The notes: generated from the sequence alone by a model not told the origin. A stretch of DNA of 64,000 nucleotides from a virus (IMGVR_UViG_3300043567_000723); one strand, 5' to 3'. Counted from the first letter of the stretch, positions 3 through 63,781 are shown. A program made the numbers and translations.

Positions 3-818
3 AAAGCGCTCAATGCCCTTGTGCAGGTGCCGAAAAAATATCCCGACGGCGCCGCGCATGCGCAAGCCGACGGCCGGGTGCAAGAAATCCGTCCGGCTCC
101 GCAGGGCGGCCACTATGTGCAGATTAATGGGCAAGATCACTATGTTCCGACCGAGAGAGCATTATCAGTTAAAAAAGGCGATGATCTTGAAGCTGGCGAC
201 GTACTATCTGACGGTATGCCCAACCCGTCAGAGATCGTAAAGCACAAAGGCATCGGCGAGGGTCGGCGTTATTTTGTGCAAGCCATGCGGCAGGTAATGG
301 GCAATAGCGGGATTACAGCTCACCGCCGAAACATTGAATTATTGTCGCGCGGCCTTGTAAACCATGTCCGGCTGACCGACGAATATGGCGATTACTCGCC
401 GGACGACATTGTGCCGTACTCTTCGTTAGAGCGAAATTGGACGCCGCGCGACGGAAGCGTGTCAGCGGCGCCGCAGACATTAACCGGGCACTATCTCGAA
501 AAACCGGTTTTACACTATTCAATCGGCACGAAGATCGGTAAAAACGTGCTAACGAACTTGAACAAATACGGCATTAAAAATATTCAAGCCCACAAAGAAC
601 CGCCGCCGTTTCAGCCGGAAATGGTGCGGGGTATGGCCAATATTTCAAATGACCCGGATTGGATGACGCGCATGCTTGGGTCGTACCAAGAAAAAGGTTT
701 AATGAATAGCGTTCACCGCAACTTATCCAGCGACGCCGCCGGCAGCAGTTATGTGCCTGCTTTAGCGCAAGGTGAGCAGTTTGGCGTAACCGGCACGACA
801 AGCGGGTGGAAGCCTTGA
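3..818 (+). CDS. rpoC: Phage DNA-directed RNA polymerase beta-prime subunit, C-terminal part (5'-partial)
   Basis: Frame is open from the window start (KALNALVQVP...). It contains the beta-prime C-terminal signature VKKGDDLEAGDVLSDGMPNP...RRYFVQAMRQVM...HRRNIELLSR (cf. bacterial V..GD.V..G..L.DG...P..IL...Y.V..VQ.VY...I..KHIEVIVR). Confidence 0.85.
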   Translation, partial: KALNALVQVPKKYPDGAAHAQADGRVQEIRPAPQGGHYVQINGQDHYVPTERALSVKKGDDLEAGDVLSDGMPNPSEIVKHKGIGEGRRYFVQAMRQVMGNSGITAHRRNIELLSRGLVNHVRLTDEYGDYSPDDIVPYSSLERNWTPRDGSVSAAPQTLTGHYLEKPVLHYSIGTKIGKNVLTNLNKYGIKNIQAHKEPPPFQPEMVRGMANISNDPDWMTRMLGSYQEKGLMNSVHRNLSSDAAGSSYVPALAQGEQFGVTGTTSGWKP

Positions 819-882
819 GCCGCTTTTTGTAGGATATAAGGACTTCGGCGCGGTAAATTATTGCCGTGTCATTATTTGTGCG

Positions 883-896
883 CAGCATGGAGGCTG
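883..896 (+). promoter_or_regulatory. SD in a CsrA-type hairpin CAGC-ATGGAG-GCTG, upstream of GTG 900
   Basis: 4-bp stem, ANGGAN hexaloop and CANGGANG core read directly from the sequence. Confidence 0.6.
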
Positions 897-899
897 GCC

Positions 900-3284
900 G
901 TGTATAACAAAAAAGCTAAAGAGTCGTCCGTTAAGCATCTGCTCAACGTCATGCGGTCCTATGACCGGACCCAGACTAAGTACGCTGATTTAGGCGGAAA
1001 AGGTGATGACACTTCTTTCGAGCAGTCGTTTAGCAATCTTGCGCACGCCTATCTCCGCGACTCAGCACCCAAGCTCCTTGACCACGAGATCGGTTTCCAG
1101 CTTCTCGACCGTAATCGCGAGAACACCAAGGCTGTCGGTGTATTTGCGTTTAAAGTTGGTTCGATGTGGCTGTACGCGCCCGTGTTCTTTTTAAACGGCG
1201 ACCTCAAGGGCCACGAACTGCTGTATATCAAGAATCAGGACATGTTCGTGCCGCTCAAGGAAAACTGGATTAACTATCTGATCAACCGCAAGCCCAACAT
1301 TCTTGGTAGCGGCGTCGAGCGCAATCTGTCTAATCTCGGCCAGCGCCAGCCTGACTTTACGCAACTCTCTCGTAGCCCGTCGAAGTTTGGTTCGGCGAAA
1401 CCCACGCTTAAAGAGATGATGACGGCCGCTATGCCGGCGTTCGCCAAGAGCGCCACATTAAATACACAACAAACCTTCGCTGAACTCGGTGAAGCGTTAA
1501 ACCTGAAAACGTTCTTAAAGCAGGCTGGTTTAGACGTAATCGGCTCGTTAATTAAAATGTGCCAGTACGCGCCGCAGGTAGCCAACGCAATCGACGAGTT
1601 TCACGGTTTAGATATCATCAAAGAAGCAATGGCTGCTGCCAAGCTTCGCGAAGCCGCCTCGACTACCAAAGTTGCCAGCGTACTGTCGGAAGCACCTAAG
1701 ACGCCCGAAGCGGCCAAGGGTCTCAAGGTCATCGCGTATGACGCTACAGTTCAGACCAAACTGCCGGCTGGTCATACAGAAGAAGATCAAGAGAAGTTAC
1801 TGCGCGACGGTGTGCTGATCCAAGACCAACGCGACCGCGACAATGTCTCGATCCCTTACAACATTCAGGTCGAGAAAAAGCTGTTCAATCCGACCGAAAG
1901 CGGCCTGTACGAGATCCTCGTCAAGCCCGGCGATATTGAGCGCTGCTACGTGGCTGTGCACCCGCAAGGCGCTGCCAAGCGCGAGAACTTCATTACTGTT
2001 GTGCGCACAGACGGCAAGCCTGACTGGCTTAATACCCGCGCTGACCAAGTGTTTGCGCTGTCGCGCGTTGAGGGCGAAGAGTTTGACAAGTGGTTCGACG
2101 CCCTGCCCGAAGCCAACAGCGTGCCCAGCAAAGACGCGCGGTATATCGCACTTAGCAAGCGCGGTGACTGTACGGCTCCGTTCCGCGTTATTCGCGAGTA
2201 CGGCAAGTCGGAGCACGACATGCAGTGCTACGAAGTGCATCTTGAAGATCACTCGAAGTATCCGCCCAAGGGCAGCATTTGCGGTAGCTGCTATACAGAC
2301 CCTCTGAACTATGACAAGTGGCGTGACGGTGTTCGCATTCACCTGAACGGTAAGAAGGGTTCCAGCCTGCGCGCGAGCATGGGCGACATCTTCGTGCCGG
2401 AAGGTTTCAAGCTCCTCAAGGTGAGCAAGGGCGCAGACGATGAGGACACGGTTAAAGATCAGGACGCATGTGGTTGCGGCGAGAGTGATCCGCCGGCCCT
2501 GCAGCCCGGCAACCTCGTTGACGCGCAACTGGCGCTGATGGGCAAGACTGCCGCCTTAACTGTGTACCACAACGGCACAGAGGTCAGCATTAACAAAGAA
2601 GCCAGCCTAAGCCCCATCAAGGCGCTGGTCACACTTGTTGAGCACCACGGCCTGCGTGAAGAAGCTGCCCGCGAGATCTTAAAGCAAGCGTCTGCCAAGA
2701 AGAAGTTTGAGTGCCGCGTGAAGTACGCCGATCCGTACGGCGGCGCAATGCTCGTCAACAGCGCCCCGAACGCCCCGACAGATCCGGGCCCGGTTATGGG
2801 CGGCGAAAGCATCATGGGCACCAGCGTTCCGACCCAGCTCGGTATTGACGTTGGTCTGCCTGTGTCTGGCATGAGCGCGAGCAACACAGACCGCAGTGTT
2901 TACAACCCCAACACGCAGTTTGATAAGCGAGACGTGCGGTCTATCGTTGACGCCGCGCAGAGCGGCCAGCGCGAAGTATTTGACACGGCCATGGTGGGCA
3001 CAATGTTGCGCGCTGTACGTGACGACTCGCTGGTTGACCGGTATATGGGCGAGCTGACCAAGGGGTTAGACAAACTTGGCCGCATTTTATTTATGTTTTA
3101 CTGGCACGGCGATCGGTTTGCTGAGCGTTATGGCAAGTCCGACATGCCGGAACTAGAAGATTCGCTGCGCAACGCGTTTGAAATGCTCGGCGACGTTATT
3201 CTGTTCCTCAAGCAGAAAACAATTGAACCGTATCCCGAAGAGGCCGCGTCGGATATCGATCTTGGCGCTACCGCTAACGTTTAA
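900..3284 (+). CDS. Large conserved-looking phage protein, probably head-associated
   Basis: Long ORF; start moved to GTG 900 because GGAGG lies upstream. First gene of the head module, with several K-x-A motifs (TKYA, AKSA, LKQA, VKYA). Confidence 0.6.
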   Translation: MYNKKAKESSVKHLLNVMRSYDRTQTKYADLGGKGDDTSFEQSFSNLAHAYLRDSAPKLLDHEIGFQLLDRNRENTKAVGVFAFKVGSMWLYAPVFFLNGDLKGHELLYIKNQDMFVPLKENWINYLINRKPNILGSGVERNLSNLGQRQPDFTQLSRSPSKFGSAKPTLKEMMTAAMPAFAKSATLNTQQTFAELGEALNLKTFLKQAGLDVIGSLIKMCQYAPQVANAIDEFHGLDIIKEAMAAAKLREAASTTKVASVLSEAPKTPEAAKGLKVIAYDATVQTKLPAGHTEEDQEKLLRDGVLIQDQRDRDNVSIPYNIQVEKKLFNPTESGLYEILVKPGDIERCYVAVHPQGAAKRENFITVVRTDGKPDWLNTRADQVFALSRVEGEEFDKWFDALPEANSVPSKDARYIALSKRGDCTAPFRVIREYGKSEHDMQCYEVHLEDHSKYPPKGSICGSCYTDPLNYDKWRDGVRIHLNGKKGSSLRASMGDIFVPEGFKLLKVSKGADDEDTVKDQDACGCGESDPPALQPGNLVDAQLALMGKTAALTVYHNGTEVSINKEASLSPIKALVTLVEHHGLREEAAREILKQASAKKKFECRVKYADPYGGAMLVNSAPNAPTDPGPVMGGESIMGTSVPTQLGIDVGLPVSGMSASNTDRSVYNPNTQFDKRDVRSIVDAAQSGQREVFDTAMVGTMLRAVRDDSLVDRYMGELTKGLDKLGRILFMFYWHGDRFAERYGKSDMPELEDSLRNAFEMLGDVILFLKQKTIEPYPEEAASDIDLGATANV

Positions 3285-3293
3285 AGGTGAATT

Positions 3294-3677
3294 ATGCCTA
3301 GTACAGTTTGGTCCGGTAGTGTTTCGTTTACAGCCACCGGCAGCCAGTCGAACACAATCGCTGTACCGATGCCGCACCGCGCGACATTGCGCGGCTACAG
3401 CCTCGTCGAGTCGGCGGGTGGCGCAACTGGCAATTTTACGGCTGCGCTGTACACCAGCAAACAAGACACGGCACCGAACAACACGCTTCCGGCCGACTCT
3501 TTTAAATTAATGTCGTTTGACCAGACCGCAGCGTCTAATAACAATCTGAACTTGTCGTACGTTAATCGCGACGGAACGCCAACAAATCCGCAGCGTTATC
3601 TCTACCTCAAAATCACACCGGCTGCGACAAAAACGCTGGTGTTTTCTGTAACCGTCGATACCCCGACGCTTCGATAA
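3294..3677 (+). CDS. Hypothetical protein (127 aa), beta-rich, possibly structural
   Basis: ORF tightly packed in the operon, with AAGGTG SD upstream. Confidence 0.6.
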   Translation: MPSTVWSGSVSFTATGSQSNTIAVPMPHRATLRGYSLVESAGGATGNFTAALYTSKQDTAPNNTLPADSFKLMSFDQTAASNNNLNLSYVNRDGTPTNPQRYLYLKITPAATKTLVFSVTVDTPTLR

Positions 3678-4625
3678 ATGAATAACACGTTGCGTGATAG
3701 CCCGCGTCGTGCTCCGCACTGGCGCTGGCTGCGTGCTGTTGAAATCGACGGCGGTGGTTTTCGCGCGTCCCGGAATATTGACGGGCCCGATGGTTTTATC
3801 TGGATTCGCCGCGCCCTAAAACTCAAGCGGCATTTTGAGCGAGCTAATAACAGGCCGCAGGCGGTATACGCGCTGCTGTACCGAGACCGCGACCTGTTCT
3901 GGGCGCATGCGATTTGGAGCGAAGATAAGTCGCCAACGCGCTGGGCAATAGAGGCGCGTATTTTAGCTGGCCAGACAGACGAAGAAATTGCGCAAAAAGC
4001 TGGCACAGAACCGGGCGTCATCGCAGCTTACGCAAATACATTTTTCGACGTACGCGATAAATTAGATCGCATGGATTACGTCCAAAACGTAGTTATGGCT
4101 GACGCCGTAACGCGTGGGCTACAGGAGCGGCACTATGACCTGCTCTGGAAATTGCTCGGTTTTCGCGGCGGTCCTCACGTAATTGATGCAGTAATTAATA
4201 AGTTTCCAAACGTGAATCGCCCAGAAAACGCGGACGGTGTTTCTGGCTATTTTCAAGATATGGCGATCAGTAGCATGAAATATAAGGCCGCCATAGCCAG
4301 TTTGAGCGTTCCAATTAATACACATACACAGTTACCATTGCTCGATTCTTTTGTAAAATATGTAGAAATCGAGCGGACGACGGATAGTACCAGCAAGGCA
4401 CACGCAACGATTGTCGAAAATATCGGCGCGATGTTATCTGCACTTCCGTTCAAAGTGGGTACAAAACTGGATTCGGCAGCTATAAAAATGTTACCTTACG
4501 ATAACGGGGCTGCCGAGTTACGAAACGATGAAATGATGATTGTGGCTACTGGCGGCTCGCTGGATAATCAAACGATCATCCAAGCACTGCATTACCCGGA
4601 GAATACCGATGCGGGCACTAAGTAA
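3678..4625 (+). CDS. Hypothetical protein (315 aa) with possible HTH-like segment
   Basis: Abuts the upstream stop. The segment ARILAGQTDEEIAQKAGTEPGVIAAY resembles an HTH. Confidence 0.55.
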   Translation: MNNTLRDSPRRAPHWRWLRAVEIDGGGFRASRNIDGPDGFIWIRRALKLKRHFERANNRPQAVYALLYRDRDLFWAHAIWSEDKSPTRWAIEARILAGQTDEEIAQKAGTEPGVIAAYANTFFDVRDKLDRMDYVQNVVMADAVTRGLQERHYDLLWKLLGFRGGPHVIDAVINKFPNVNRPENADGVSGYFQDMAISSMKYKAAIASLSVPINTHTQLPLLDSFVKYVEIERTTDSTSKAHATIVENIGAMLSALPFKVGTKLDSAAIKMLPYDNGAAELRNDEMMIVATGGSLDNQTIIQALHYPENTDAGTK

Positions 4626-5994
4626 AGAAGCTGAGCAAAAATTAATTAGCGCTATTGAACGCGCGGCCTCCCTTGTTAACGATGGCGCCAACCCAAACGA
4701 CGCCATTGTTAAAAGCGCTTCGGACGCTAACATCCCAGCCGGGCACATTAATCTTATGGTGCACGCCTACAACACTGGCCGTACCACGAAGCAGCGCGAG
4801 CAGGGTTCTAATCCGCTAGAGAAAGCAGCAGACTTTCAATTAGCAAATGCAGATACCGTTATGGCGCGCTTATATCCGCAACAAGTCAAGACATCGGCAG
4901 AACTGACGCAGTCGTCTGTTGTGTCGGCTGAGTACGCTATATCGCCGCGCGGTTTCATCGGCCGCCGAAACGCTGAGATGCAGAAAGCTGCCGCCGCTCA
5001 GTCGATTCTCCCGGAAAAGACTTTCGTACCAGCACCCCGCGACGATCATTCAGCCGCCCGTCGTGCTTACAGCCAGCAAGTTGCCGAAAAGCGTGCGGCT
5101 GAAGAACTTCGTCGGCAAGCAACCGCGGCGCATATGAAAGCTGCCGCGGCCATGGAAGATCTTTGTCATTACTTTCGTGTACCCGGCAGCATGGCGTTTA
5201 ACGACGCTGTTCGCGAGGTCGGTTTGCGGCTTGGTGACATCGGCGTCTCAACACTCAAGAAAGCCGCTGCTGTATACCCGCAGTTAGAGAAACAAGCCGC
5301 CACGAACGAGAACTTTTTCGGTAATTTGCCCGTGGTCACGCTTGTTGAGGACGTTATTCGCGCCGTTGGTTCGTATAACGACGCGCAAAGCAAAATTGCC
5401 GCAACGCAAACCAAGGCAGCTGAATTCGGTAAGAAAGAAGTACCAGAAATTATTACAGGTTCGATCCTGCATGACCCCAAGACAGCTCCGCTAGCTTTAA
5501 AAGTGGCTGCTGTTGTCGGTAAAGGAAAAAAAAAACCTGATAGTCCAGAACCTGCCCCGTTAGGCTCGTATAGCGGCGTGTTATCGCACATGGGCAAAAT
5601 TATGGGTCCCGGCGCTGCTATTGCTAAAAGCGAAACAGACAGCGACCCGACGCGGCAAAAAGCCAAAGCGTTTATGAGCATGTCTGACGCCGACCACGAA
5701 AATAAACTTCAGCAGATTAAATCGCGCGGCGTGTTAAATGATCTCATCCTGAACGACCCTGTAATCTCTGGTTATGACCCGCACGAAGTAGCTTCTGCTT
5801 ATAATCAGATCGCCGAAATGGCTCCTAACTTTACCGGACAAAGCGCGGCTATGCAGGCGTTACTTCGCAAACGGTTAGAGGCGGGTCAGCTGGCTGATTT
5901 TGACGTAAAGCAAATGATTGAAATGGAAAAACTGCGCGCTGAGAGTTTAAAGTCAAATCTTGAAGCGCAGCAAAAAGCTCGTGAACTCCTGTAG
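4609..5994 (+). CDS. Ala-rich putative inner-head protein
   Basis: ATG 4609 (MRALSKEA) overlaps the upstream gene end. Helical and Ala-rich, with many K-x-A motifs (EKAA, QKAA, EKQA, TKAA). Confidence 0.55.
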   Translation: MRALSKEAEQKLISAIERAASLVNDGANPNDAIVKSASDANIPAGHINLMVHAYNTGRTTKQREQGSNPLEKAADFQLANADTVMARLYPQQVKTSAELTQSSVVSAEYAISPRGFIGRRNAEMQKAAAAQSILPEKTFVPAPRDDHSAARRAYSQQVAEKRAAEELRRQATAAHMKAAAAMEDLCHYFRVPGSMAFNDAVREVGLRLGDIGVSTLKKAAAVYPQLEKQAATNENFFGNLPVVTLVEDVIRAVGSYNDAQSKIAATQTKAAEFGKKEVPEIITGSILHDPKTAPLALKVAAVVGKGKKKPDSPEPAPLGSYSGVLSHMGKIMGPGAAIAKSETDSDPTRQKAKAFMSMSDADHENKLQQIKSRGVLNDLILNDPVISGYDPHEVASAYNQIAEMAPNFTGQSAAMQALLRKRLEAGQLADFDVKQMIEMEKLRAESLKSNLEAQQKARELL

Positions 5995-6002
5995 GACTTA
6001 GC

Positions 6003-6983
6003 ATGAACAACACCGAAGCAAAAGAACTTGCGCGCGGCTTGTCCGGTGTGGCGCTACGCGAGCCGAATGACGCCATGAGCAAAGTGGCTGCAGCCGTTGT
6101 TGACTTACAGTTCAAACAAGCCGCGATTGATCTGCAGCAAATCATCAGCAGCCCGTATACGCAGAATGCTTTACTGGGCGCTGGCGCTGGTGGTTTAATC
6201 GGCGCGCTGCAGGGTAAAAAGAAACGCCGCGCCGTGCTTGATTACGCCTTAATGGGCGGCTTGGGTGGTCTTGGCGCTACCGCAGCAAAAGAAATGTTAT
6301 TAAAACCCGCGACGCCACCCCCGGCCGTTGCTGCAGCCAAATACGATAACAACCCGGTTGGGGCTGCGACTGGCTTGGCTGCTGCTGGCGCTGGTGCCTA
6401 CGGCGGTCGTCAGGTTGCAAACGCAATTGACTCGCACGGCAAACTCAACAGGCTTCTGGGCGCTGATTCGGCAATCGCTAAACAACTACAGCCGACCATC
6501 GACAGCCTGCGCTCTACGAACGGCGCAACAAAAATCACTGAGAACCTTACGGATCATTTGCGGGCTGCGCAGCTTGCTGGTAACCCGTCGCTTGCAACAC
6601 GGCTGCAGTCGTTAGCTCGCGGGAATGACCACATGCCACGTGACGTCGGCCTGCACCTTGAAAATGCCGGTATGACAACGCCATCTTCTGTGGCCGGTCG
6701 CGTGCAATCAGCTCGCGGCGCAGCTCGTGGCAACTTTTTAGGTGGCCTCTTCGGTCGCAACACGGACGACGTCGCTAACTCGATGGCAGCGATTGCCGCC
6801 GAGCCGGCTTCTGGCGTCGGTCGCGCTGGCCGCGGATTAACCGGTTCTCAGTTGCAGCAGGCGCTGCGGCGGTTACCGCGTCGTGGAGGCGCTCTCGTCG
6901 GTCTCGGTTTACCCGTATTAGGTGCGCTGGCCGGTCCAGCGCTTTTAAACAGTTTTAGCAGCGGCGCTGCCGCGGGTGAGTAA
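6003..6983 (+). CDS. Gly/Ala-rich protein with glycine-zipper segments (possible inner-core/ejection protein)
   Basis: GAGAGGLIGAL, GGLGGLGA, GLAAAGAGAYGG and a hydrophobic C-terminal GLGLPVLGALAG. Confidence 0.5.
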   Translation: MNNTEAKELARGLSGVALREPNDAMSKVAAAVVDLQFKQAAIDLQQIISSPYTQNALLGAGAGGLIGALQGKKKRRAVLDYALMGGLGGLGATAAKEMLLKPATPPPAVAAAKYDNNPVGAATGLAAAGAGAYGGRQVANAIDSHGKLNRLLGADSAIAKQLQPTIDSLRSTNGATKITENLTDHLRAAQLAGNPSLATRLQSLARGNDHMPRDVGLHLENAGMTTPSSVAGRVQSARGAARGNFLGGLFGRNTDDVANSMAAIAAEPASGVGRAGRGLTGSQLQQALRRLPRRGGALVGLGLPVLGALAGPALLNSFSSGAAAGE

Positions 6984-6985
6984 AC

Positions 6986-8452
6986 ATGAGCATGATCAAA
7001 GTTATTCAACCGCACTCGCAGGATTTCAGCGAGCCGGTCGCCGCGCTAATTAAGATATCTAGTCGCGGCATCATTGGCGCCGACAAGCAAGACCTTGTAA
7101 AACGCGCCGGCGCTGAATTTGCGCACAAACTTGAAAACATCAAGTTTGCCAAAGATGAGATCCCGGTTCACATGATCGCCATCGGGGCTACGGAAGATTA
7201 CGGCCCCAACCGCAACGGCGACGGGTTTAGCCGCGAATGCTGCCAAAACTATCACAACACATTTGAAAAGTACGCCCGTTTTTACCGGGATCACGCCAAT
7301 AAAAATCCGGCAAAAAGTTTCGGCATTGTAAAAGCCAGCGCCTACCACGAGCCGATGCGCCGTATTGAGCTAGTTGTAGCTTTAAACGGCTCTAAAGAAG
7401 CCGCTGATCGTAACGGTGGTTTAATTGCCGATAAGGAAATGGAAAAGCTGGCAAACGACAAAGACATCGCCGTTTCCATGGCCTGCAAGATCCCGTTTGA
7501 TAAGTGCTCTTCCTGCGGCAACACGGCCAAGACACGGGCCGAATACTGTGACGCTGTAGAAAACGGCGGGCACTGCAAGGCTGGCGGTTTACGGCGCAAT
7601 ATCGGGCGCGTTCTAGACGACGGCCACGTACTGCACGCCGATAACCCCAATCCTAGCTTTTTTGATATTTCGCACGTTTTCAGGCCTGCAGACCGCATTG
7701 CGTATGTTTTCGGCAAAGTCGCCGAACTGCAAAAGGCGGCTTCTGCGCACTGTATTTCCGGGGTAGAGCTGGCCGAGCAAATGGGGATTACTGCCCCGAT
7801 TGCCTTTGACGCTGGCGGTACCCCTAGTCGACGGGTGCAAACACAATTAGAGGCGTTAACACAATTAGCGCAGGCTGAGAAGTTAGCTGGTGACGGCGCT
7901 GCGTGGGCCCAGACCGCTCTCGCGTCTAATCCAGTTGTTCAACCGGCTATTGATGTAAATTGCTGCCCGTCTGTTAAAATGTCGGAAGTGTTGCGCGGAT
8001 TAACAGACGCCGGTGTAATCCTGCCTTTGCGGGACTTTCTGGCGTTGACAGTTAAATCAGCCAATGCGAAACTTGTTAGTGCAGTGGCCTACGCGCTGCC
8101 TAACATGTTCTCTAAAGTTGCAAACGATCCTGATGTCGTTGGGTTACTTGAGAACAACGTGTACTATCCAGCAAATGCCGCGTCGCCAAGCGTGCGGGTA
8201 TGGGCTGAAAAAGTAGCACACACACATAGCGTATTACCGAGCAATGTTGAAAAGCGGGCTTATTTAGCCGCTCTTCGCAACGCTCAACCCAGTGAGTTTT
8301 CAACAGATAAACAAGCAAGTGGAGAAGCAGAAACAGCTCTTGCGCAACATTACGCTTTGTATAAGATCGCTGCTTACGCCACAATCTGCGAGAAATATGG
8401 AAATCATTGGTTGACAACAAACCACTGTGTATTGCAAAATTATGTCACATGA
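6986..8452 (+). CDS. Putative prohead (capsid maturation) protease with Cys-rich metal-binding insert
   Basis: NRNGDGF, FYRDHANK (candidate His), VSMAC (candidate nucleophile Ser), CSSC...C...HC. Lies upstream of scaffold and capsid genes. Confidence 0.65.
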   Translation: MSMIKVIQPHSQDFSEPVAALIKISSRGIIGADKQDLVKRAGAEFAHKLENIKFAKDEIPVHMIAIGATEDYGPNRNGDGFSRECCQNYHNTFEKYARFYRDHANKNPAKSFGIVKASAYHEPMRRIELVVALNGSKEAADRNGGLIADKEMEKLANDKDIAVSMACKIPFDKCSSCGNTAKTRAEYCDAVENGGHCKAGGLRRNIGRVLDDGHVLHADNPNPSFFDISHVFRPADRIAYVFGKVAELQKAASAHCISGVELAEQMGITAPIAFDAGGTPSRRVQTQLEALTQLAQAEKLAGDGAAWAQTALASNPVVQPAIDVNCCPSVKMSEVLRGLTDAGVILPLRDFLALTVKSANAKLVSAVAYALPNMFSKVANDPDVVGLLENNVYYPANAASPSVRVWAEKVAHTHSVLPSNVEKRAYLAALRNAQPSEFSTDKQASGEAETALAQHYALYKIAAYATICEKYGNHWLTTNHCVLQNYVT

Positions 8453-8498
8453 ACGGAAGCTAATCGCTTAACACGATTAGACCCCAAAGGAGAAAGTC

Positions 8499-9878
8499 AT
8501 GGCACGGATGCAACGTTCACTGTTCGCTCAACTTAATGCTCTCGCCGAAGAGATCGCGCAGAGCCCCATCAAGTCGGCTGCTGATAAGTCGGCTTCTCCC
8601 GTGCCGGCTGATCCGGGTGGCTATCAGGGTGCGTCTTCGCATCCGACTACGACCGCCGACAACGGCGTCCAGAATGCTTCGACCGGTGCCCGTGCGTCTG
8701 AGTACGCCGCCGACATCAAGAAGCAGCAGGGCGCTCTTGCTGTAGACAACACACCTGAGCTTTCGCAAGAAGGTCGTCAAGACGAAGTTCAAACGAACAT
8801 TGGTCTTGCCGCTAAGGCGACTGGCGAAGATCCCGCCAATGAAAAAGATTTCAAGGGCACGAAAGATGATCCGGGTACTTCGTCGCCGGTTAAGGCCGAT
8901 GACGGCGAAAAGTATAGCACGGTAACTTTCAAAGAAGCCCGTGAGCGCGCTGGCAACCTCGGTAACGATATCCTCGCTAACCTCATCAACTTTGGTGTTA
9001 GCAATCTTCAAGGTGAGAAGGCCGCTGAAATGCCGGCTTTCCTCAAGGAGAAGATGGAAGGAAAAAAAGAGGAAGCCGGTGAATCCGCCAAGCACGAGGC
9101 CACTGAATCACCGGCTGCTGAAAAGGCCGAACACAGCGGCTTAAAGGGCGACCAGCACAAGCTCGACACCGACAACGACGGTAAGATCGAAGGTTCTGAT
9201 CTTGCTGCGCTTCGGAACGACAAGGCTGCTGCCTTCAAGGCTGGTTATGAACTTGCTGCGCATCTCGGTCTGAACAAAGAAGCTGCTGAAGCTTCTGTTC
9301 GCGACGTGTGCGCTAACACGCTTCGTGAAGCCGACGAGATGGCTGACCTGTTCATTGGCTTTGTAACTTCGAAGTCCGCTGCTGCTGATCCGACCGAAGA
9401 AGCTGCCGAAGGCGAAGATCACTCTGCCCCCGGCGACGCCGACTCGGGCATGGGTGACGCCCCGGCTGCCGCGCCTGCTGGCCTTGAGGCCATGATGGGT
9501 GGCGAGGGTGGTGCTCCTGATATGGCGCCCGAAGAGACCGCCGGCGGCGAGCCGTCGGAGGACGAGGCTGTGCAGGAACTTGCTATGGCGCTTCAAGAAC
9601 TCGGCATCCCGCCGGAAGCTCTTCTGCAAGCCCTGTCGCAAGGTGGCCAAGGTGGCGGTGACGCCGCTGGCGCTCCCGCGATGGAGCCGCCGATGGACCC
9701 GGCTATGGCCGGCGCTGACCCGAAGATGGCCGCGGCTAACGACCTTAACCTGATCGGTCACGCTGTTGTTAACTTTAAGCGCGCCGGTAAGTTTCAGATC
9801 AAAGAAGCCCGCACAAAGCGTTCGCGCGAACTGCGGGACATGATGAAACAGCACGTTCTTGAACTCGTAAACCGGTGA
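8499..9878 (+). CDS. Putative capsid scaffolding/prohead core protein
   Basis: Acidic, low-complexity and Ala/Pro/Glu-rich, between protease and capsid genes. Has the GDQHKLDTDNDGKIEGSDLAALR motif, many K-x-A motifs and a strong AAAGGAG SD. Confidence 0.6.
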   Translation: MARMQRSLFAQLNALAEEIAQSPIKSAADKSASPVPADPGGYQGASSHPTTTADNGVQNASTGARASEYAADIKKQQGALAVDNTPELSQEGRQDEVQTNIGLAAKATGEDPANEKDFKGTKDDPGTSSPVKADDGEKYSTVTFKEARERAGNLGNDILANLINFGVSNLQGEKAAEMPAFLKEKMEGKKEEAGESAKHEATESPAAEKAEHSGLKGDQHKLDTDNDGKIEGSDLAALRNDKAAAFKAGYELAAHLGLNKEAAEASVRDVCANTLREADEMADLFIGFVTSKSAAADPTEEAAEGEDHSAPGDADSGMGDAPAAAPAGLEAMMGGEGGAPDMAPEETAGGEPSEDEAVQELAMALQELGIPPEALLQALSQGGQGGGDAAGAPAMEPPMDPAMAGADPKMAAANDLNLIGHAVVNFKRAGKFQIKEARTKRSRELRDMMKQHVLELVNR

Positions 9879-9879
9879 T

Positions 9880-9891
9880 AACACGGAGGTT
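9880..9891 (+). promoter_or_regulatory. SD in a CsrA-type hairpin AAC-ACGGAG-GTT (ACACGGAGGT)
   Basis: Exact match to W-CANGGANG-W, 5 nt before ATG 9896. Confidence 0.6.
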
Positions 9892-9895
9892 TTTA

Positions 9896-10321
9896 ATGTC
9901 TACTGCAAATAACGCGCTCGTACAGAAAATCATCGATTACATCGGTTACTCCGATGCCGCGATGACCAAAGCCGCCGCCGCCGACAAGGCGCAGGTTGAA
10001 ACCAGCGAGAAGCTGGCCAGCCTGATCCCCGAAGCCGTAAAGGTGTGCGTGGAGAACGAGCGGATTGAAGCTCACCAGAAAGAAGCGCTCGCTGCAGCTC
10101 TTCAAGATCCGGTGCGCACAATGGAACTTGTTATCAAATTAGCTGCGCATAAAAACGCTGCTGAAATGGCTCGCCTTGGTACACCGGTCGCCACAAAGAC
10201 GGCCGGCTATGACCCGACGAGCAGCCTGACGAGCGGGTATGTGGGTGCCCGCGATGGTCGCCTCAAGGCTTCTGATGTGAAATTTTTCACTGGCCTTGGT
10301 CTCAACCCGCCCACTACCTGA
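9896..10321 (+). CDS. Head-module hypothetical protein
   Basis: ATG 9896 with SD; helical, with K-x-A motifs (EKLA, IKLA, HKNA, TKTA). Confidence 0.65.
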   Translation: MSTANNALVQKIIDYIGYSDAAMTKAAAADKAQVETSEKLASLIPEAVKVCVENERIEAHQKEALAAALQDPVRTMELVIKLAAHKNAAEMARLGTPVATKTAGYDPTSSLTSGYVGARDGRLKASDVKFFTGLGLNPPTT

Positions 10322-10358
10322 GTTTCGTCCCTTACCTGAACACGTTTCCAATTGCTAA

Positions 10359-10372
10359 AGACACGGAGGTCT
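10359..10372 (+). promoter_or_regulatory. SD in a CsrA-type hairpin AGAC-ACGGAG-GTCT
   Basis: 4-bp stem with ANGGAN hexaloop, directly upstream of ATG 10377. Confidence 0.65.
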
Positions 10373-10376
10373 AACA

Positions 10377-10964
10377 ATGCCTGCTCCTGATCTTATGTTT
10401 GAACACGGCCTTGACGTCAAAAAGGGCTGGTTTGATATGGCGTCCCTTGACTACTCGGCCAAGCTGAAAAGCACGGTCTCTTACGATGTTCCGCGCGGTC
10501 GCGTGGTGCATCTGCAGAAAGAGAGCGGCAAGGACGTTTTCGCCCCCGGTGTTTCCACCACGGGTGTTGCTATTTTCTTGCTGAACGGTTCGGCAGATGC
10601 TGACGTCAGCAATCCGGGTACCACAGCGTCCGGCGCCTTCATGCATCAGGCTGTTTCGCCCTCGGGCAAACTGTCGGGTCTTGTCGCGACCGGTGGTTAT
10701 GAAATTGCCACCACCGAGTACGTGAAGACGTCCGGCAATCCTGCTGTGGCCGTGGTTTACAGCCCCGGCGATCTTCTGACTGCTCCCACCACCGGCGGCT
10801 CGACTGTCGAGGGCGTGCTGACGAAAGCCAGCGCTGTGCAGTACGTAAACCCGGTTTGCGGTGTTGTTTCGAGCGGCGCGGCCAAGAACCACAATGGCGT
10901 GGACACGCTTTCCTTCTGGTGCGTGTACCTGCCGGCTGGCACCGCGGCGACAATCAACGCTTGA
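10377..10964 (+). CDS. Putative capsid decoration/cement protein
   Basis: 195 aa, Gly/Thr/Val beta-rich, immediately upstream of the major capsid gene. The YSPGDLLTA...GVL pattern is typical of head stabilising proteins. Confidence 0.6.
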   Translation: MPAPDLMFEHGLDVKKGWFDMASLDYSAKLKSTVSYDVPRGRVVHLQKESGKDVFAPGVSTTGVAIFLLNGSADADVSNPGTTASGAFMHQAVSPSGKLSGLVATGGYEIATTEYVKTSGNPAVAVVYSPGDLLTAPTTGGSTVEGVLTKASAVQYVNPVCGVVSSGAAKNHNGVDTLSFWCVYLPAGTAATINA

Positions 10965-10983
10965 TCTATCCCTAACTAATTCA

Positions 10984-10999
10984 GGAACATGGAGGTTCC
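10984..10999 (+). promoter_or_regulatory. SD in a CsrA-type hairpin GGAAC-ATGGAG-GTTCC, upstream of the major capsid gene
   Basis: Perfect 5-bp stem with ATGGAG hexaloop; ACATGGAGGT matches W-CANGGANG-W. Confidence 0.7.
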
Positions 11000-11003
11000 C
11001 AAA

Positions 11004-11930
11004 ATGCCCACTCAGCAAGAAATCCAACTGCTTAACGAGACGCTTTTTGAGCAGCTTGATACCCCCGGCATGCAAAAGCAGGCCATTGATGCGGTTAACG
11101 ATTTCACGCGCACCAAGATGCGTGAAGACGGGTTCTACCGGCGGATTATGCCGCCGCTGACTATCACCAACGACGAGCTGGACCGTCAGGTTGACACTGA
11201 CAAGCCCGTCAAGGTTGTGGACAAGGAGCCCGATTCCCCGGCGGCTGTGTCGCTTCCGTTCGCGACGCTCCCGATCAACTTCTACATCCGTGGCCCGCGC
11301 TACCGCGTCATGTTTGACCGGATCGTGTCGCCCCGCGCTGTGAAGGACGTCGACGAGCTGCGTACGTATGTCATCGACATCCGTCAGGTTCTGTCGGACA
11401 ACATGATCAAGGACATGCTGGCTGAAGAGGACGGCAAGTTTATTGCCGCCTTCAACGCCGTCCTGCCGACTGCTGGTGTTGCTAACGTCGCTAGCGGCGT
11501 TGTGCAGTACGAGGAGATCAGCGGTGGTATCACCCGCGAAACGCTGGTGGACGCCCTGAAGGTCATGCCGCGCACGCCGTCGCACTTTGAGGTTGAAACT
11601 TGCCTCGTGAATAACATCACGATCAAGGAACTCCTCAAGTTCGGCCGCGACGAAATGGGCGGTGACTTCTCGCAGGACATCATCAAGAACGGTTGGGCGG
11701 AAACCAACTTCCTCAACTGCCGCTGGATCGTCACGATCAAGCGCGACCTCGTTCCCGATGATGCCATGTTCATGTTCGCCTCGCCGAAGTTCATCGGCAA
11801 GAACTACGAGCTGGAGCCCACCACGATGTACATCCGTCGTGAGGCGTTCATGCTTGAGTACTTTGCGTATCAAACATCCGGCGGCTCGTTCGGCCATACG
11901 AACGGTCTCGCTCGGGTTGACTTCAAGTAA
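11004..11930 (+). CDS. Major capsid protein (HK97-fold, inferred)
   Basis: ~308 aa with strong C-ending codon bias. REDGFYRRIMPP...EPDS.A...F...YIRGPRYRVMFDRIVSP...KDVDELRTY..DIR pattern; follows protease, scaffold and decoration genes. Start set to ATG 11004 because the SD covers ATG 10989. Confidence 0.8.
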   Translation: MPTQQEIQLLNETLFEQLDTPGMQKQAIDAVNDFTRTKMREDGFYRRIMPPLTITNDELDRQVDTDKPVKVVDKEPDSPAAVSLPFATLPINFYIRGPRYRVMFDRIVSPRAVKDVDELRTYVIDIRQVLSDNMIKDMLAEEDGKFIAAFNAVLPTAGVANVASGVVQYEEISGGITRETLVDALKVMPRTPSHFEVETCLVNNITIKELLKFGRDEMGGDFSQDIIKNGWAETNFLNCRWIVTIKRDLVPDDAMFMFASPKFIGKNYELEPTTMYIRREAFMLEYFAYQTSGGSFGHTNGLARVDFK

Positions 11931-11965
11931 TGTCGTGTAAGGATTAACACCTAAAGGAGCACGTT

Positions 11966-12352
11966 ATGGATAACGTTAAAGAGGCGGCAGAGCAAGCGTA
12001 TGCCACCATCGTGGCGGAACTTGCCGCGCCGTATTTCTTCGAGAAGCTTGCCGCGCATGGGATTGCCCCGCGCACGGAAGGCGAGGCCGCAGAAATGTGG
12101 TCGGCCGCTTCCAAGCTTCATGTGCTCTACACGGCGGAGCAAGAAAAGGCCGCGGCTGCGCAAGCATCCGAGCTAGCTGCTACTAACCAGCAGCTGGACG
12201 CGATGCTTGCCGCCGCGGGCCTTGGCGGCACAGTTGAAAAGGCGGCTGCTTTCGGCGGCGCGGCTAACGTCGCAGCGGATCAACCTGAGATCGCTCAGGC
12301 TGTTCTGGTGCTTCAAGCCGCGGCTGCTACAGCTCTGCAAAGCGCATCTTGA
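11966..12352 (+). CDS. Ala-rich head-module protein
   Basis: AAAGGAG SD; K-x-A motifs (VKEA, FEKLA, QEKAA, VEKAA). Confidence 0.65.
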   Translation: MDNVKEAAEQAYATIVAELAAPYFFEKLAAHGIAPRTEGEAAEMWSAASKLHVLYTAEQEKAAAAQASELAATNQQLDAMLAAAGLGGTVEKAAAFGGAANVAADQPEIAQAVLVLQAAAATALQSAS

Positions 12353-53166: not shown

Positions 53167-53544
53167 ATGTCTTTTAGTGCCGCAGCTGAGGGTATCAAAC
53201 TGGCCGTCACTCGACGGTGTTCTAAACAGGCCCCTCAGTTTCAGATCGTGCCTGACAAAGCACAAATGCTTTTCGACAATACAGCAGAAAAGCATTCGAA
53301 GGATCTGAGCAAGATTAATGGCTTTTGGGAAAAAGCCGCTTATCTGAAAGAACGTGTTCTCGCTCGTACGACCAAGAGCTTGCGAGGAAACATGGCCCGC
53401 CTGTACCACGAGTGGACAGCGGCAATGTTGCGTGGCGAACTAGCATCAATGGATGATGACACCGTAATGCGGCAAGTCGATCCAAATATTGAAAAGATCG
53501 CGCAAGGCCATGCATGGCTTGCGTGCACGGCCAGCCTTAATTAG
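53167..53544 (+). CDS. Hypothetical protein (125 aa)
   Basis: AAGGGAG SD; flanked by structured intergenic regions. Confidence 0.6.
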   Translation: MSFSAAAEGIKLAVTRRCSKQAPQFQIVPDKAQMLFDNTAEKHSKDLSKINGFWEKAAYLKERVLARTTKSLRGNMARLYHEWTAAMLRGELASMDDDTVMRQVDPNIEKIAQGHAWLACTASLN

Positions 53545-57343: not shown

Positions 57344-58528
57344 CTACTCCGAGAGCTGCGCCAGCTCATGCAGGCGCTCAAGCGGAAGTAGTGTTTCAAA
57401 AGCCGCGGCTTTAACAACCGCGCCCGCATTCTTTTCCTGCATTAAACGGTCTAATGTCGCCGCCATGCCGCGGTCCAGCGTCGGCACAAGTGCTGCCAGC
57501 TTATCGCGGTCCATGTAAACGCCGCCGGCGCTTACCGCTTCGGCAAAATCATCGCCGAGCCACTCGCGCACATCTTCAACCGCTAGCTTCTCAAGATCTT
57601 CTAGCGCGTAAACGTTACCGGTAGTAGTCTCGACGTTTTGACTCATAAAATCGCGGGCGACCTTTTCGGTAATCGCAAACAAGACTTCTTCCGGCCGAGA
57701 TAAACCGCCGGCATCGTACATGCGGTTTAAATTGGTGTTACGGTCAAAATCGTCGACCGCGCTCGCCAACTTTAGACGCATGTCAGTGTCCCGAGCCCTA
57801 TCCGGGTTCTGGTCAATGACTGCTGCTAACTTGGACAACTCAGCGGAAAGCGCCCCATGGCTGCGCTGCGTGAGCCGTACGCGATCTTTGAGCATTTGGC
57901 TGGCCACCTTAGCTGCACAAGCACCTAAGCCAGCGGCCAGTTCAAGCGCGCCGTCAGCGTCCGATACGTCGGCACTGTATTCGGCGGCCTTTTCAAGAAT
58001 TTTTGTGGCAATAACGTGACGGTCTGCGAACACAAAATTATCGCGGAACTCCCTGAAGTGCGCGGCAGCAAACTTTACTTCCGACGCATTTCGTAACGGC
58101 CAGTGACGTTCCTTACCGCCGACGTCGCTAACCCAGACGATAGCGAATTCAGAGTCAGGTAGGCTGTTTAAATCCTGCGCGCCAGCAGCGGCCATTTTCT
58201 CTTCCAGCTCAGCAATAGTGCCGGAAATGCCAAAATATTCGGCTGCTTGGTGTATCTTAGATTTAATGGCGGCGGCTTCCTGCGCGTCGAAGTTTGCTTG
58301 CTTGTCCATAAAGAACAGCGCAGACATCCATGTTGCGGGAGCCGTGTGACACGGATACAGTTTATTGCGCTGATCGGCGTACAGGTGTCGCGGTAAGGAT
58401 TCCGTGGCTGCGCCAGTTCTGTCTTGTGCGGCACTTTTAACGAATGTCGGGCACGGATAAAGCGTAGTAAGCCTGTGGGTCTCGCGACCACTTACATCGT
58501 GCGCCTGATCGAGCGAGATATTTGTCAT
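57344..58528 (-). CDS. Head-related protein with LPDSEFA...RHWPL domain (DUF6582-like) and K-x-A motifs
   Basis: AGGTAGGA SD. LNSLPDSEFAIVW...ERHWPLRNASEVKFAAAHF...IATKILEKAAEY is a pattern seen in phage head/scaffold proteins. Confidence 0.6.
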   Translation of the reverse strand: MTNISLDQAHDVSGRETHRLTTLYPCPTFVKSAAQDRTGAATESLPRHLYADQRNKLYPCHTAPATWMSALFFMDKQANFDAQEAAAIKSKIHQAAEYFGISGTIAELEEKMAAAGAQDLNSLPDSEFAIVWVSDVGGKERHWPLRNASEVKFAAAHFREFRDNFVFADRHVIATKILEKAAEYSADVSDADGALELAAGLGACAAKVASQMLKDRVRLTQRSHGALSAELSKLAAVIDQNPDRARDTDMRLKLASAVDDFDRNTNLNRMYDAGGLSRPEEVLFAITEKVARDFMSQNVETTTGNVYALEDLEKLAVEDVREWLGDDFAEAVSAGGVYMDRDKLAALVPTLDRGMAATLDRLMQEKNAGAVVKAAAFETLLPLERLHELAQLSE

Positions 58529-63469: not shown

Positions 63470-63781
63470 ATGGCTAATATGTCTAACGCTATTGAAACGG
63501 CTGCTGCGCGGTTAGCGGATGCCGTCGAAAAAGAAATGGCGCTTGAAGACACGCGGCACACGGTCAAGCTAGCTGCTATCTCGCGTATCATGCTTGGTGG
63601 CGAAAATCAGCTGACCGGTAAGCCGCACAGCTTCAGTTCCGCAGAAGCGGCTGTAAGCACTGATAGCGCCTACGCAGATCACCTAGAGCAACTGCGCAAC
63701 GCGGCGCGCGAGCGTATACTTGCGCGCGGCGGCTATGATGCCGCTGTGGCGGCCGCAAGACTACAGGAAAACCTCATTTAG
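63470..63781 (+). CDS. Hypothetical helical protein
   Basis: AAGGAG SD; operon-packed. Confidence 0.6.
   Translation: MANMSNAIETAAARLADAVEKEMALEDTRHTVKLAAISRIMLGGENQLTGKPHSFSSAEAAVSTDSAYADHLEQLRNAARERILARGGYDAAVAAARLQENLI

Follow-up and report, generated by a model that had tools for sequence, protein, structure and literature searches.

Herpesvirus assemblins (MEROPS S21; VP24/UL26 of herpes simplex virus (HSV), UL80a of human cytomegalovirus (HCMV), and the protease of varicella-zoster virus (VZV)) cut between Ala and Ser at a release and a maturation site. T4 gp21 (MEROPS S77) and phiKZ gp175 read a P3-x-P1 motif, L/I-x-E for T4 gp21 and S/A/G-x-E for phiKZ, and such prohead proteases habitually destroy the scaffold, propeptides, and themselves at many sites. 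To our knowledge, all characterized phage prohead proteases with the T4 fold cut after Glu. In phage SPN3US, gp245 cuts after A-x-E, and the propeptides of its substrates bear multiple copies of the motif (PMC10052503). Here, we analyzed a 64,000-nucleotide stretch of IMGVR_UViG_3300043567_000723 (the window), which derives from an uncultured lake phage of approximately 200 kb and whose first 12.4 kb form a plus-strand head module. The closest cultured relatives, Salmonella phage Arash and Vibrio phages D69, D148, and D181, share an identical gene order. The tripeptide Lys-x-Ala (K-x-A) is enriched in the genes around a putative prohead protease (6986–8452), and we consider it probable, by analogy with the characterized enzymes, that K-x-A is the recognition motif of this protease, which would cut after the Ala with Lys at P3 and would be herpesvirus-like rather than T4-like.

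Seven proteins within 861–12352 make up the head set used below; their K-x-A counts are given relative to the numbers expected from each protein's own composition:

861–3284, plus strand, head-module protein of 807 amino acids (aa), a weak homologue of Arash virion protein gp218; 12 K-x-A versus 5.6 expected
4540–5994, plus strand, head-module protein of 484 aa; 13 versus 5.6
6003–6983, plus strand, head-module protein of 326 aa with a conserved N-terminal K27-V-A29; 3 versus 2.2
6986–8452, plus strand, prohead (capsid maturation) protease of 488 aa, predicted from a fold match; 14 versus 4.5
8499–9878, plus strand, scaffold-like protein of 459 aa, acidic, rich in Ala, Gly, and Pro, low in complexity, and with a basic C-terminal helix; 10 versus 5.6
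9875–10321, plus strand, small head-module protein of 148 aa; 6 versus 1.8
11966–12352, plus strand, small Ala-rich head-module protein of 128 aa; 4 versus 1.6

Pooled over the head set, K-x-A occurs 62 times versus 27.0 expected (z 6.7), and it ranks first among the 1600 combinations of ordered residue pairs with gaps of 0 to 3, the runner-up reaching a z of 4.1. The excess is restricted to a single order and spacing, as K-A (0.92 times the expectation), A-x-K (1.07 times), and R-x-A (0.82 times) are not enriched. The initial annotation of this DNA had pointed out K-x-A examples around the protease, each of which was found again at its gene, and had described the motif as far less apparent in proteins of the sheath and baseplate. 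This agrees with the slight depletion in the remaining proteins of the window taken together (53 versus 70.9; 0.75 times). Correction for Ala and Lys content had been set beforehand as the check able to refute the proposal, and the enrichment persisted. The head proteins are indeed Ala-rich (up to 32% Ala) and Lys-rich, which would favor an explanation of the excess as a by-product of composition, internal repeats, or chance. That explanation can be dismissed with near certainty: shuffles within windows of 10 to 50 residues, in which local Ala/Lys patches are kept, gave z values of 7.2–7.7, and the maximum of 3000 shuffles was 47 compared with the 62 observed. Furthermore, the order and spacing are specific, the contexts of the sites are diverse instead of repeated, and the excess recurs in independent lineages.

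K-x-A is a protein-level feature and not a DNA motif, because the corresponding pattern AAR-NNN-GCN is frame-specific in the head set (62, 9, and 2 occurrences across the three frames) and the codons are mixed, with both Lys codons and four Ala codons in use. Two other types of motif were considered and rejected in the head proteins. EAAAK-type helix repeats are inconsistent with the lack of excess of both A-x-K and K-A, and the x-E motifs of the T4/phiKZ type stay close to expectation (LxE 1.19, IxE 1.14, AxE 1.12, SxE 0.90, and GxE 0.80 times).

The position of the sites along the proteins is also informative. A K-x-A at residues 20 to 45 is present in eight of the 11 head-module proteins and in three of 50 other proteins (Fisher p = 8e-6), a placement that fits the removal of short N-terminal leaders. 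Every K-x-A of the 861–3284 protein lies before residue 624, and all those of the 4540–5994 protein fall within its first two thirds, leaving the last 160–184 residues of the two proteins free of the motif; this is the pattern expected if a C-terminal mature part survives. Their orthologues show a comparable abundance, with medians of 12 K-x-A versus 5.0 expected for 861–3284 and 12 versus 5.2 for 4540–5994.

Conservation was evaluated in alignments of 31–36 orthologues per head protein (nine for 6003–6983), taken from IMG/VR contigs whose proteases are 65–87% identical to that of the window. Across these alignments, the motif Lys is conserved at 0.82 versus 0.73 for other Lys residues and the motif Ala at 0.81 versus 0.68 for other Ala residues, while the middle residue, P2, is conserved at 0.62, below the average of 0.70. 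The position profile shows P3 and P1 as conserved islands amid flanks of 0.59–0.70. The pattern is sharpest in the scaffold-like protein (motif Lys 0.97 versus 0.76 for other Lys; motif Ala 0.93 versus 0.62 for other Ala; P2 0.54), where site 242 is typical: Lys and Ala are each kept in 35 of 36 orthologues and P2 is Glu in 19, Ala in 14, and Lys in two. Of the six sites in the small 9875–10321 protein, five have been retained by 97% or more of 33 orthologues. At the level of whole orthologue families, the enriched genes are those enriched in the window (ratios of 1.8–3.3), in contrast to the capsid, decoration, neck, and tail genes (0.05–1.2). These alignments indicate that selection acts on the K-x-A motif.

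The excess is also found in more distant phages that encode a homologous protease. In Arash, whose protease (gp222) is 36% identical, no pair is more enriched than K-x-A in the gene neighborhood of the protease (44 versus 19.7; z 5.5), and the second pair, L-x-K, points to a hydrophobic P5. Vibrio phage D181 (protease VPHD181_0277) has 41 K-x-A versus 15.5 in six genes around the protease, and the IMG/VR contig L036, with a protease 45% identical, has 54 versus 14.2. The protease of a further contig, L038 (30% identical), carries 11 versus 2.7, and in Bacillus megaphage G the counts are 8 versus 2.4 for gp19 and 7 versus 2.8 for gp21. The high-GC Gordonia phage Stormageddon (L041; NC_054726.1, 15160–18429), whose protease (gp13) has 1089 aa, displays R-x-A instead as the enriched pair of its head module (45 versus 26), which suggests that P3 can be Arg instead of Lys in some lineages. 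The catalytic domains of the Arash, D181, phage G, and Stormageddon proteins are homologous to that of 6986–8452, with 31–37% identity; these proteins are annotated as structural, as hypothetical, or as 'capsid maturation protease', and no cleavage motif has been reported for them.

The protease family as a whole comprises 2577 clusters at 50% identity. Among the best 150 representatives, all 109 with a single architecture exceed the expected number of K-x-A, with 1422 in total versus 381 (median 13 versus 3.5). In the divergent C-terminal halves of the homologues, K-x-A is by far the top pair (4.3 times), followed by E-K, which corresponds to P4-P3. A logo built from 254 sites pooled from five lineages extended the motif on both sides. 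P5 is hydrophobic at 146 of these sites versus 71 expected (Leu 2.7, Met 3.5, and Phe 2.7 times), P4 is Glu (3.8 times) or Val, and P1' is Ser (3.4 times) or Ala (1.9 times), with small residues at 143 sites versus 71 expected. The extended consensus reads (L/M/I/F)-(E/V)-K-x-A↓(S/A) with a variable P2, the arrow marking the bond presumed by analogy.

The 6986–8452 protein consists of an N-terminal catalytic domain (approximately residues 45–250) and a C-terminal helical domain (approximately 280–488). A fold model of residues 1–280 built on 50 diverse homologues had a predicted local distance difference test score (pLDDT) of 84, with residues 50–240 at 93–98. An earlier full-length fold on a 21-sequence alignment had left the catalytic domain below 50, and the C-terminal helical domain alone was confident. 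An exhaustive structure search with VIA-align returned the VZV protease as the best match (Z 10.9, root-mean-square deviation 2.6 Å, 115 residues aligned), followed by T4 gp21 (PDB: 5jbl; Z 9.7, 2.5 Å, 127 residues) and the HCMV protease (Z 7.7); unrelated folds scored a Z of 5.6 or less. Foldseek listed almost exclusively herpesvirus proteases and gp21, with weak E-values of 0.02 or worse. Among tblastn matches were the 'capsid maturation protease' of Stormageddon and phage G gp19. Single-sequence and profile searches found no PDB relative, and the matching PHROG, 2774, is annotated as of unknown function. Based on the model, 6986–8452 has the protease fold of herpesvirus assemblin and T4 gp21 (MEROPS clan SH). 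The genomic position is in agreement, as the protease gene is followed immediately by the scaffold-like gene and, 2.5 kb downstream, by the capsid gene, in the same order as in Arash.

Two residues of this domain stand out as candidates for catalysis:

7292–7294, plus strand, His103, candidate catalytic histidine, invariant both among 21 sequences and among 50 diverse homologues
7475–7477, plus strand, Ser164 (in S-M-A-C), candidate catalytic serine, invariant in the same two sets

They are spaced 61 residues apart, and their order and approximate spacing resemble those of the catalytic pair of T4 gp21 and HCMV; in proteases of this fold, the catalytic Ser follows the His by about 55–70 residues. 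His103 and Ser164 are, judging from these alignments, probably the catalytic residues. Many homologues of the protease are 600–1300 aa long and contain one or two inteins (Hint and LAGLIDADG), for example P0122, P0132, and P0187, while the copy in the window is intein-free. The points of insertion are near the invariant His103 (around window position 7292) and just after Ser164-Met-Ala-Cys (residues 164–169, around 7490). Inteins are usually located in functionally critical motifs, and their placement here lends weak additional support to the functional importance of both residues. The catalytic domain also contains a cluster of Cys residues (window 7484–7576, plus strand): three of them (C174, C177, and C188) do not vary, and the other two (C167 and C197) occur in 90% or more of the 50 diverse homologues. 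This cluster looks like a zinc-binding insertion, and we know of nothing like it in T4 gp21 or the herpesvirus proteases.

The presence of a protease of this fold amid the enriched genes bears on another interpretation, in which K-x-A is not a proteolytic site and its Lys is instead modified covalently or crosslinked, for example by acylation or through an isopeptide bond. The strict preference for Lys over Arg would be accounted for by such a modification. Nevertheless, no modifying enzyme was identified in the head module, the protease family is itself the most enriched, and the positions of the sites fit processing; we regard a modified Lys as very improbable.

Four sites and the capsid protein deserve particular attention with respect to processing:

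7100–7111, plus strand, K39-R-A41↓G42, candidate N-terminal propeptide cut of the protease, intact in 35 of 35 orthologues
7733–7744, plus strand, K250-A-A252↓S253, candidate release (R-site-like) cut of the protease; K250 and A252 invariant in 21 sequences
9801–9812, plus strand, K435-E-A437↓R438, candidate maturation (M-site-like) cut of the scaffold-like protein, intact in 36 of 36 orthologues
10989–11930, plus strand, major capsid protein of 313 aa, or 308 aa with a start at 11004; it shares 30% identity with gp226, the annotated major capsid protein of Arash
11076–11084, plus strand, K30-Q-A32, candidate N-terminal trimming site and sole K-x-A of the capsid protein

K39-R-A41 precedes the confidently folded core of the protease, which starts at about residue 50. 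K250-A-A252 falls between the catalytic and C-terminal domains, at the point where the model loses confidence beyond the catalytic fold; its P1' residue is Ser in 28 of 35 orthologues, Gly in six, and Ala in one. The initial annotation had often placed the sites at apparent domain boundaries, which holds for this invariant site at the protease domain junction but not for many others, which lie inside predicted helices. A scaffold role for 8499–9878 is inferred because the gene sits between the protease and capsid genes, and K435-E-A437 lies 22 residues from the C-terminus of its product. K30-Q-A32 of the capsid protein is matched in the alignment by a (K/R)-x-A in L036, L038, Arash (gp226, K27-E-A29), Vibrio D181, and phage G (gp27, R23-V-A25). 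The capsid protein is short (308–313 aa) though related contigs reach approximately 200 kb, and the scaffold is a separate gene.

Taken together, the conserved Lys and Ala, the recurrence across lineages, the Ser/Ala at P1', the hydrophobic P5, the protease fold, and the placement of the invariant sites support the proposal, made in the initial annotation, of a protease motif with Lys at P3 and Ala at P1. In the mechanism that we propose, 6986–8452 would recognize (L/M/I/F)-(E/V)-Lys-x-Ala inside the assembling procapsid and cut after the Ala, before a small Ser or Ala. Self-cleavage of the protease would take place at K39-R-A41 and at K250-A-A252↓S, where its two domains meet, as well as at several points along the C-terminal helical domain. 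The scaffold-like protein would be cut at about ten sites, of which the one 22 residues from the C-terminus would free the scaffold from the shell, and the capsid protein would be trimmed by approximately 30 N-terminal residues. N-terminal parts would likewise be removed or fragmented in the co-assembled products of 861–3284, 4540–5994, 9875–10321, and 11966–12352, and in that of the distant 57344–58528 (minus strand). As the initial annotation suggested, the motif may also single out proteins that are packaged within the head.

A cut after Ala is suggested by the P3-x-P1 logic of T4 gp21, phiKZ, and SPN3US, by the Ala-Ser bond of the assemblins, and by the habit of such proteases of destroying their targets at multiple sites. 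The protease could instead recognize K-x-A and cut another bond, after the Lys or one residue further on, since sequence statistics cannot place the scissile bond and conservation spans P5 to P1'. We find this improbable, given that both characterized branches of the fold read P3-x-P1 and that the herpesvirus Ala-Ser bond corresponds to the A-S/A junction enriched here.

A further possibility is that K-x-A is an uncleaved linear motif, either a repeated docking or capsid-targeting element, by which scaffold, protease, and internal proteins would attach to the shell or to one another, or a helix-packing signature of helical assembly proteins. The many sites inside predicted helices, the i, i+4 spacing of the hydrophobic P5 and the Ala at P1, which could place both on the same helix face, and the restriction of the motif to co-assembling proteins would all be consistent with this interpretation. 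However, a packing motif would normally accept Arg and related spacings, and R-x-A, A-x-K, and K-A are not enriched, as noted above. The Ser/Ala at P1' and the location of sites at the domain junction, near the scaffold C-terminus, and at residues 20–45 are typical of processing, and the 10–16 copies per protein, the protease included, match known self-destructing prohead proteases and scaffolds. An uncleaved motif is accordingly rated as unlikely, although it is the strongest of the alternatives to cleavage after Ala at K-x-A.

Several observations weigh against the cleavage interpretation. The scissile bond is placed by analogy, and His103 and Ser164 are matched to the catalytic residues of the templates through their invariance and approximate spacing. 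Orthologues are related by descent, hence the conservation counts are not independent samples. The 6003–6983 protein, which the initial annotation had listed among the motif-bearing genes, has N-terminal sites only and is not enriched as a whole (3 versus 2.2; family ratio 0.89), even if its K27-V-A29 is intact in nine of nine orthologues. Several K-x-A sites of the protease lie within confidently predicted helices of its C-terminal domain, and this location implies that not all of them need be accessible. Neither 6986–8452 nor its 50 homologues matched any Pfam family, the peptidase models S21/S77/S78/S80 included, which places the protein in an uncurated family related to the curated ones by fold. 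The Arash paper (PMC10585845) makes no mention of a protease; the supplement gives gene features and no peptide list. The 2025 paper on phage G names gp19 as a head maturation protease and reports no cleavage motif.

The Arash virion proteomics does show high coverage for proteins of the scaffold region. Because many non-structural enzymes are present in the same preparation, with 116 proteins detected including metabolic enzymes, the coverage table is uninformative with regard to cleavage. Our literature search found no description of a Lys-x-Ala-specific or Ala-specific phage prohead protease.

Outside the head module, and beyond the range covered by the initial annotation, one protein encoded 45 kb away is also strongly enriched in the motif:

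57344–58528, minus strand, protein of 394 aa; 13 K-x-A versus 3.1 expected

Its 25 orthologues each contain 11–16 K-x-A versus approximately 3 expected, and in their alignment the motif Lys is conserved at 0.92 versus 0.58 for other Lys and the motif Ala at 0.93 versus 0.65 for other Ala, with P2 at 0.66. The product of 57344–58528 is predicted to be an additional substrate or a head-internal protein. Two small proteins outside the head module, 53167–53544 and 63470–63781 (both plus strand), have a K-x-A located 20–45 residues from the N-terminus, and the former has 4 versus 1.4 expected. Both may be further substrates or head-packaged proteins.

The head module is framed by the following genes:

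21–818, plus strand, 3' end of an RNA-polymerase beta'-like gene with a match to Pfam Rpb1 domain 5
861–3284, 3294–3677, 3678–4625, 4540–5994, and 6003–6983, plus strand, five genes without a family match
6986–8452, plus strand, the protease gene, followed by 8499–9878, two small genes, the capsid protein gene (10989–11930), and tail-sheath-like and baseplate genes

In IMG/VR, 37 related contigs were found, many of approximately 200 kb, and the protease protein itself is found on contigs of up to 207 kb. The longest open reading frame (ORF) of 4540–5994 begins at a TTG at 4540 and overlaps the end of 3678–4625 by 86 nucleotides; the true start of this gene is probably the ATG at 4609, the position used in the initial annotation. 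With this start, six residues would separate the first K-x-A from the N-terminus, and 35 the next. Just upstream of the capsid gene, 10377–10964 encodes a 195-aa protein without any K-x-A, which may be a decoration protein. A 508-aa minus-strand ORF, 10371–11897, overlaps 10377–10964 and 10989–11930; it is probably a shadow ORF, given that orthologues, and for the capsid protein a homologue in Arash, are known for the plus-strand genes that it overlaps.

Comparison with the herpesvirus assemblins disclosed similarities beyond the fold. The presumed scissile junction is Ala followed by Ser or Ala; the protease is fused to a non-catalytic C-terminal domain, with an R-site-like K250-A-A↓S at the junction; and a conserved M-site-like site is located approximately 22 residues from the scaffold C-terminus. 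In contrast, the phage motif has Lys at P3, a hydrophobic P5, and Glu at P4, while P3 in herpesviruses is Val, Leu, or Ile, and the phage has tens of sites per protein set versus two in herpesviruses. Sequence similarity is not detectable between the two, the phage enzyme has an invariant cluster of four to five Cys residues, and its virus infects bacteria.

T4 gp21 shares the fold, the P3-x-P1 logic, and a gene position in the head module, and its targets, namely the scaffold, the capsid N-terminus, internal proteins with capsid-targeting leaders, and gp21 itself, resemble the substrates proposed here. It differs in P1, which here would be Ala and not Glu (L/I/V-x-E is at 0.9–1.2 times the expectation), in the missing Pfam S77 match of the 6986–8452 protein, and in the extra helical C-terminal domain within the 488 aa of the latter. 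The phiKZ gp175, 201phi2-1, and SPN3US gp245 systems, whose proteases cut after S/A/G-x-E (A-x-E in SPN3US), offer a parallel as large phages with a virion-packaged multisubunit RNA polymerase and many cleaved head proteins; their lineage is unrelated, and A/S/G-x-E is not enriched here (0.8–1.1 times). The N-terminal propeptides in these systems also carry multiple copies of their motif (PMC10052503). Both the fold and the notion that head proteins carry a short cleavage code are already known; the new elements would be the K-x-A specificity and the family, neither of which is curated in the resources searched. We see about an even chance that the phage head proteases of this family, which is uncurated and very large and includes those of Arash, D181, and megaphage G, have a herpesvirus-like specificity for Ala followed by Ser or Ala, with Lys at P3, and also possess equivalents of the release and maturation sites.

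Virion mass-spectrometry data already exist for the cultured relatives Arash, Vibrio D181, and phage G, where cleavage after Ala at K-x-A can be tested. If it is correct, a six-residue code would predict, for thousands of large phages not yet cultured, where the mature forms of capsid, scaffold, and internal or ejected proteins begin and end, and the motif would point to proteins packaged in the head wherever in the genome they are encoded, such as that of 57344–58528. It would also guide model building in cryo-electron microscopy and proteomics searches. Phage head proteases would then include a second specificity class that cuts after Ala, as herpesviruses do. Assemblin-style logic, with a protease fused to a scaffold-like domain and Ala at P1, would have existed in tailed phages, and the link between phages and herpesviruses would be strengthened at the level of maturation chemistry.

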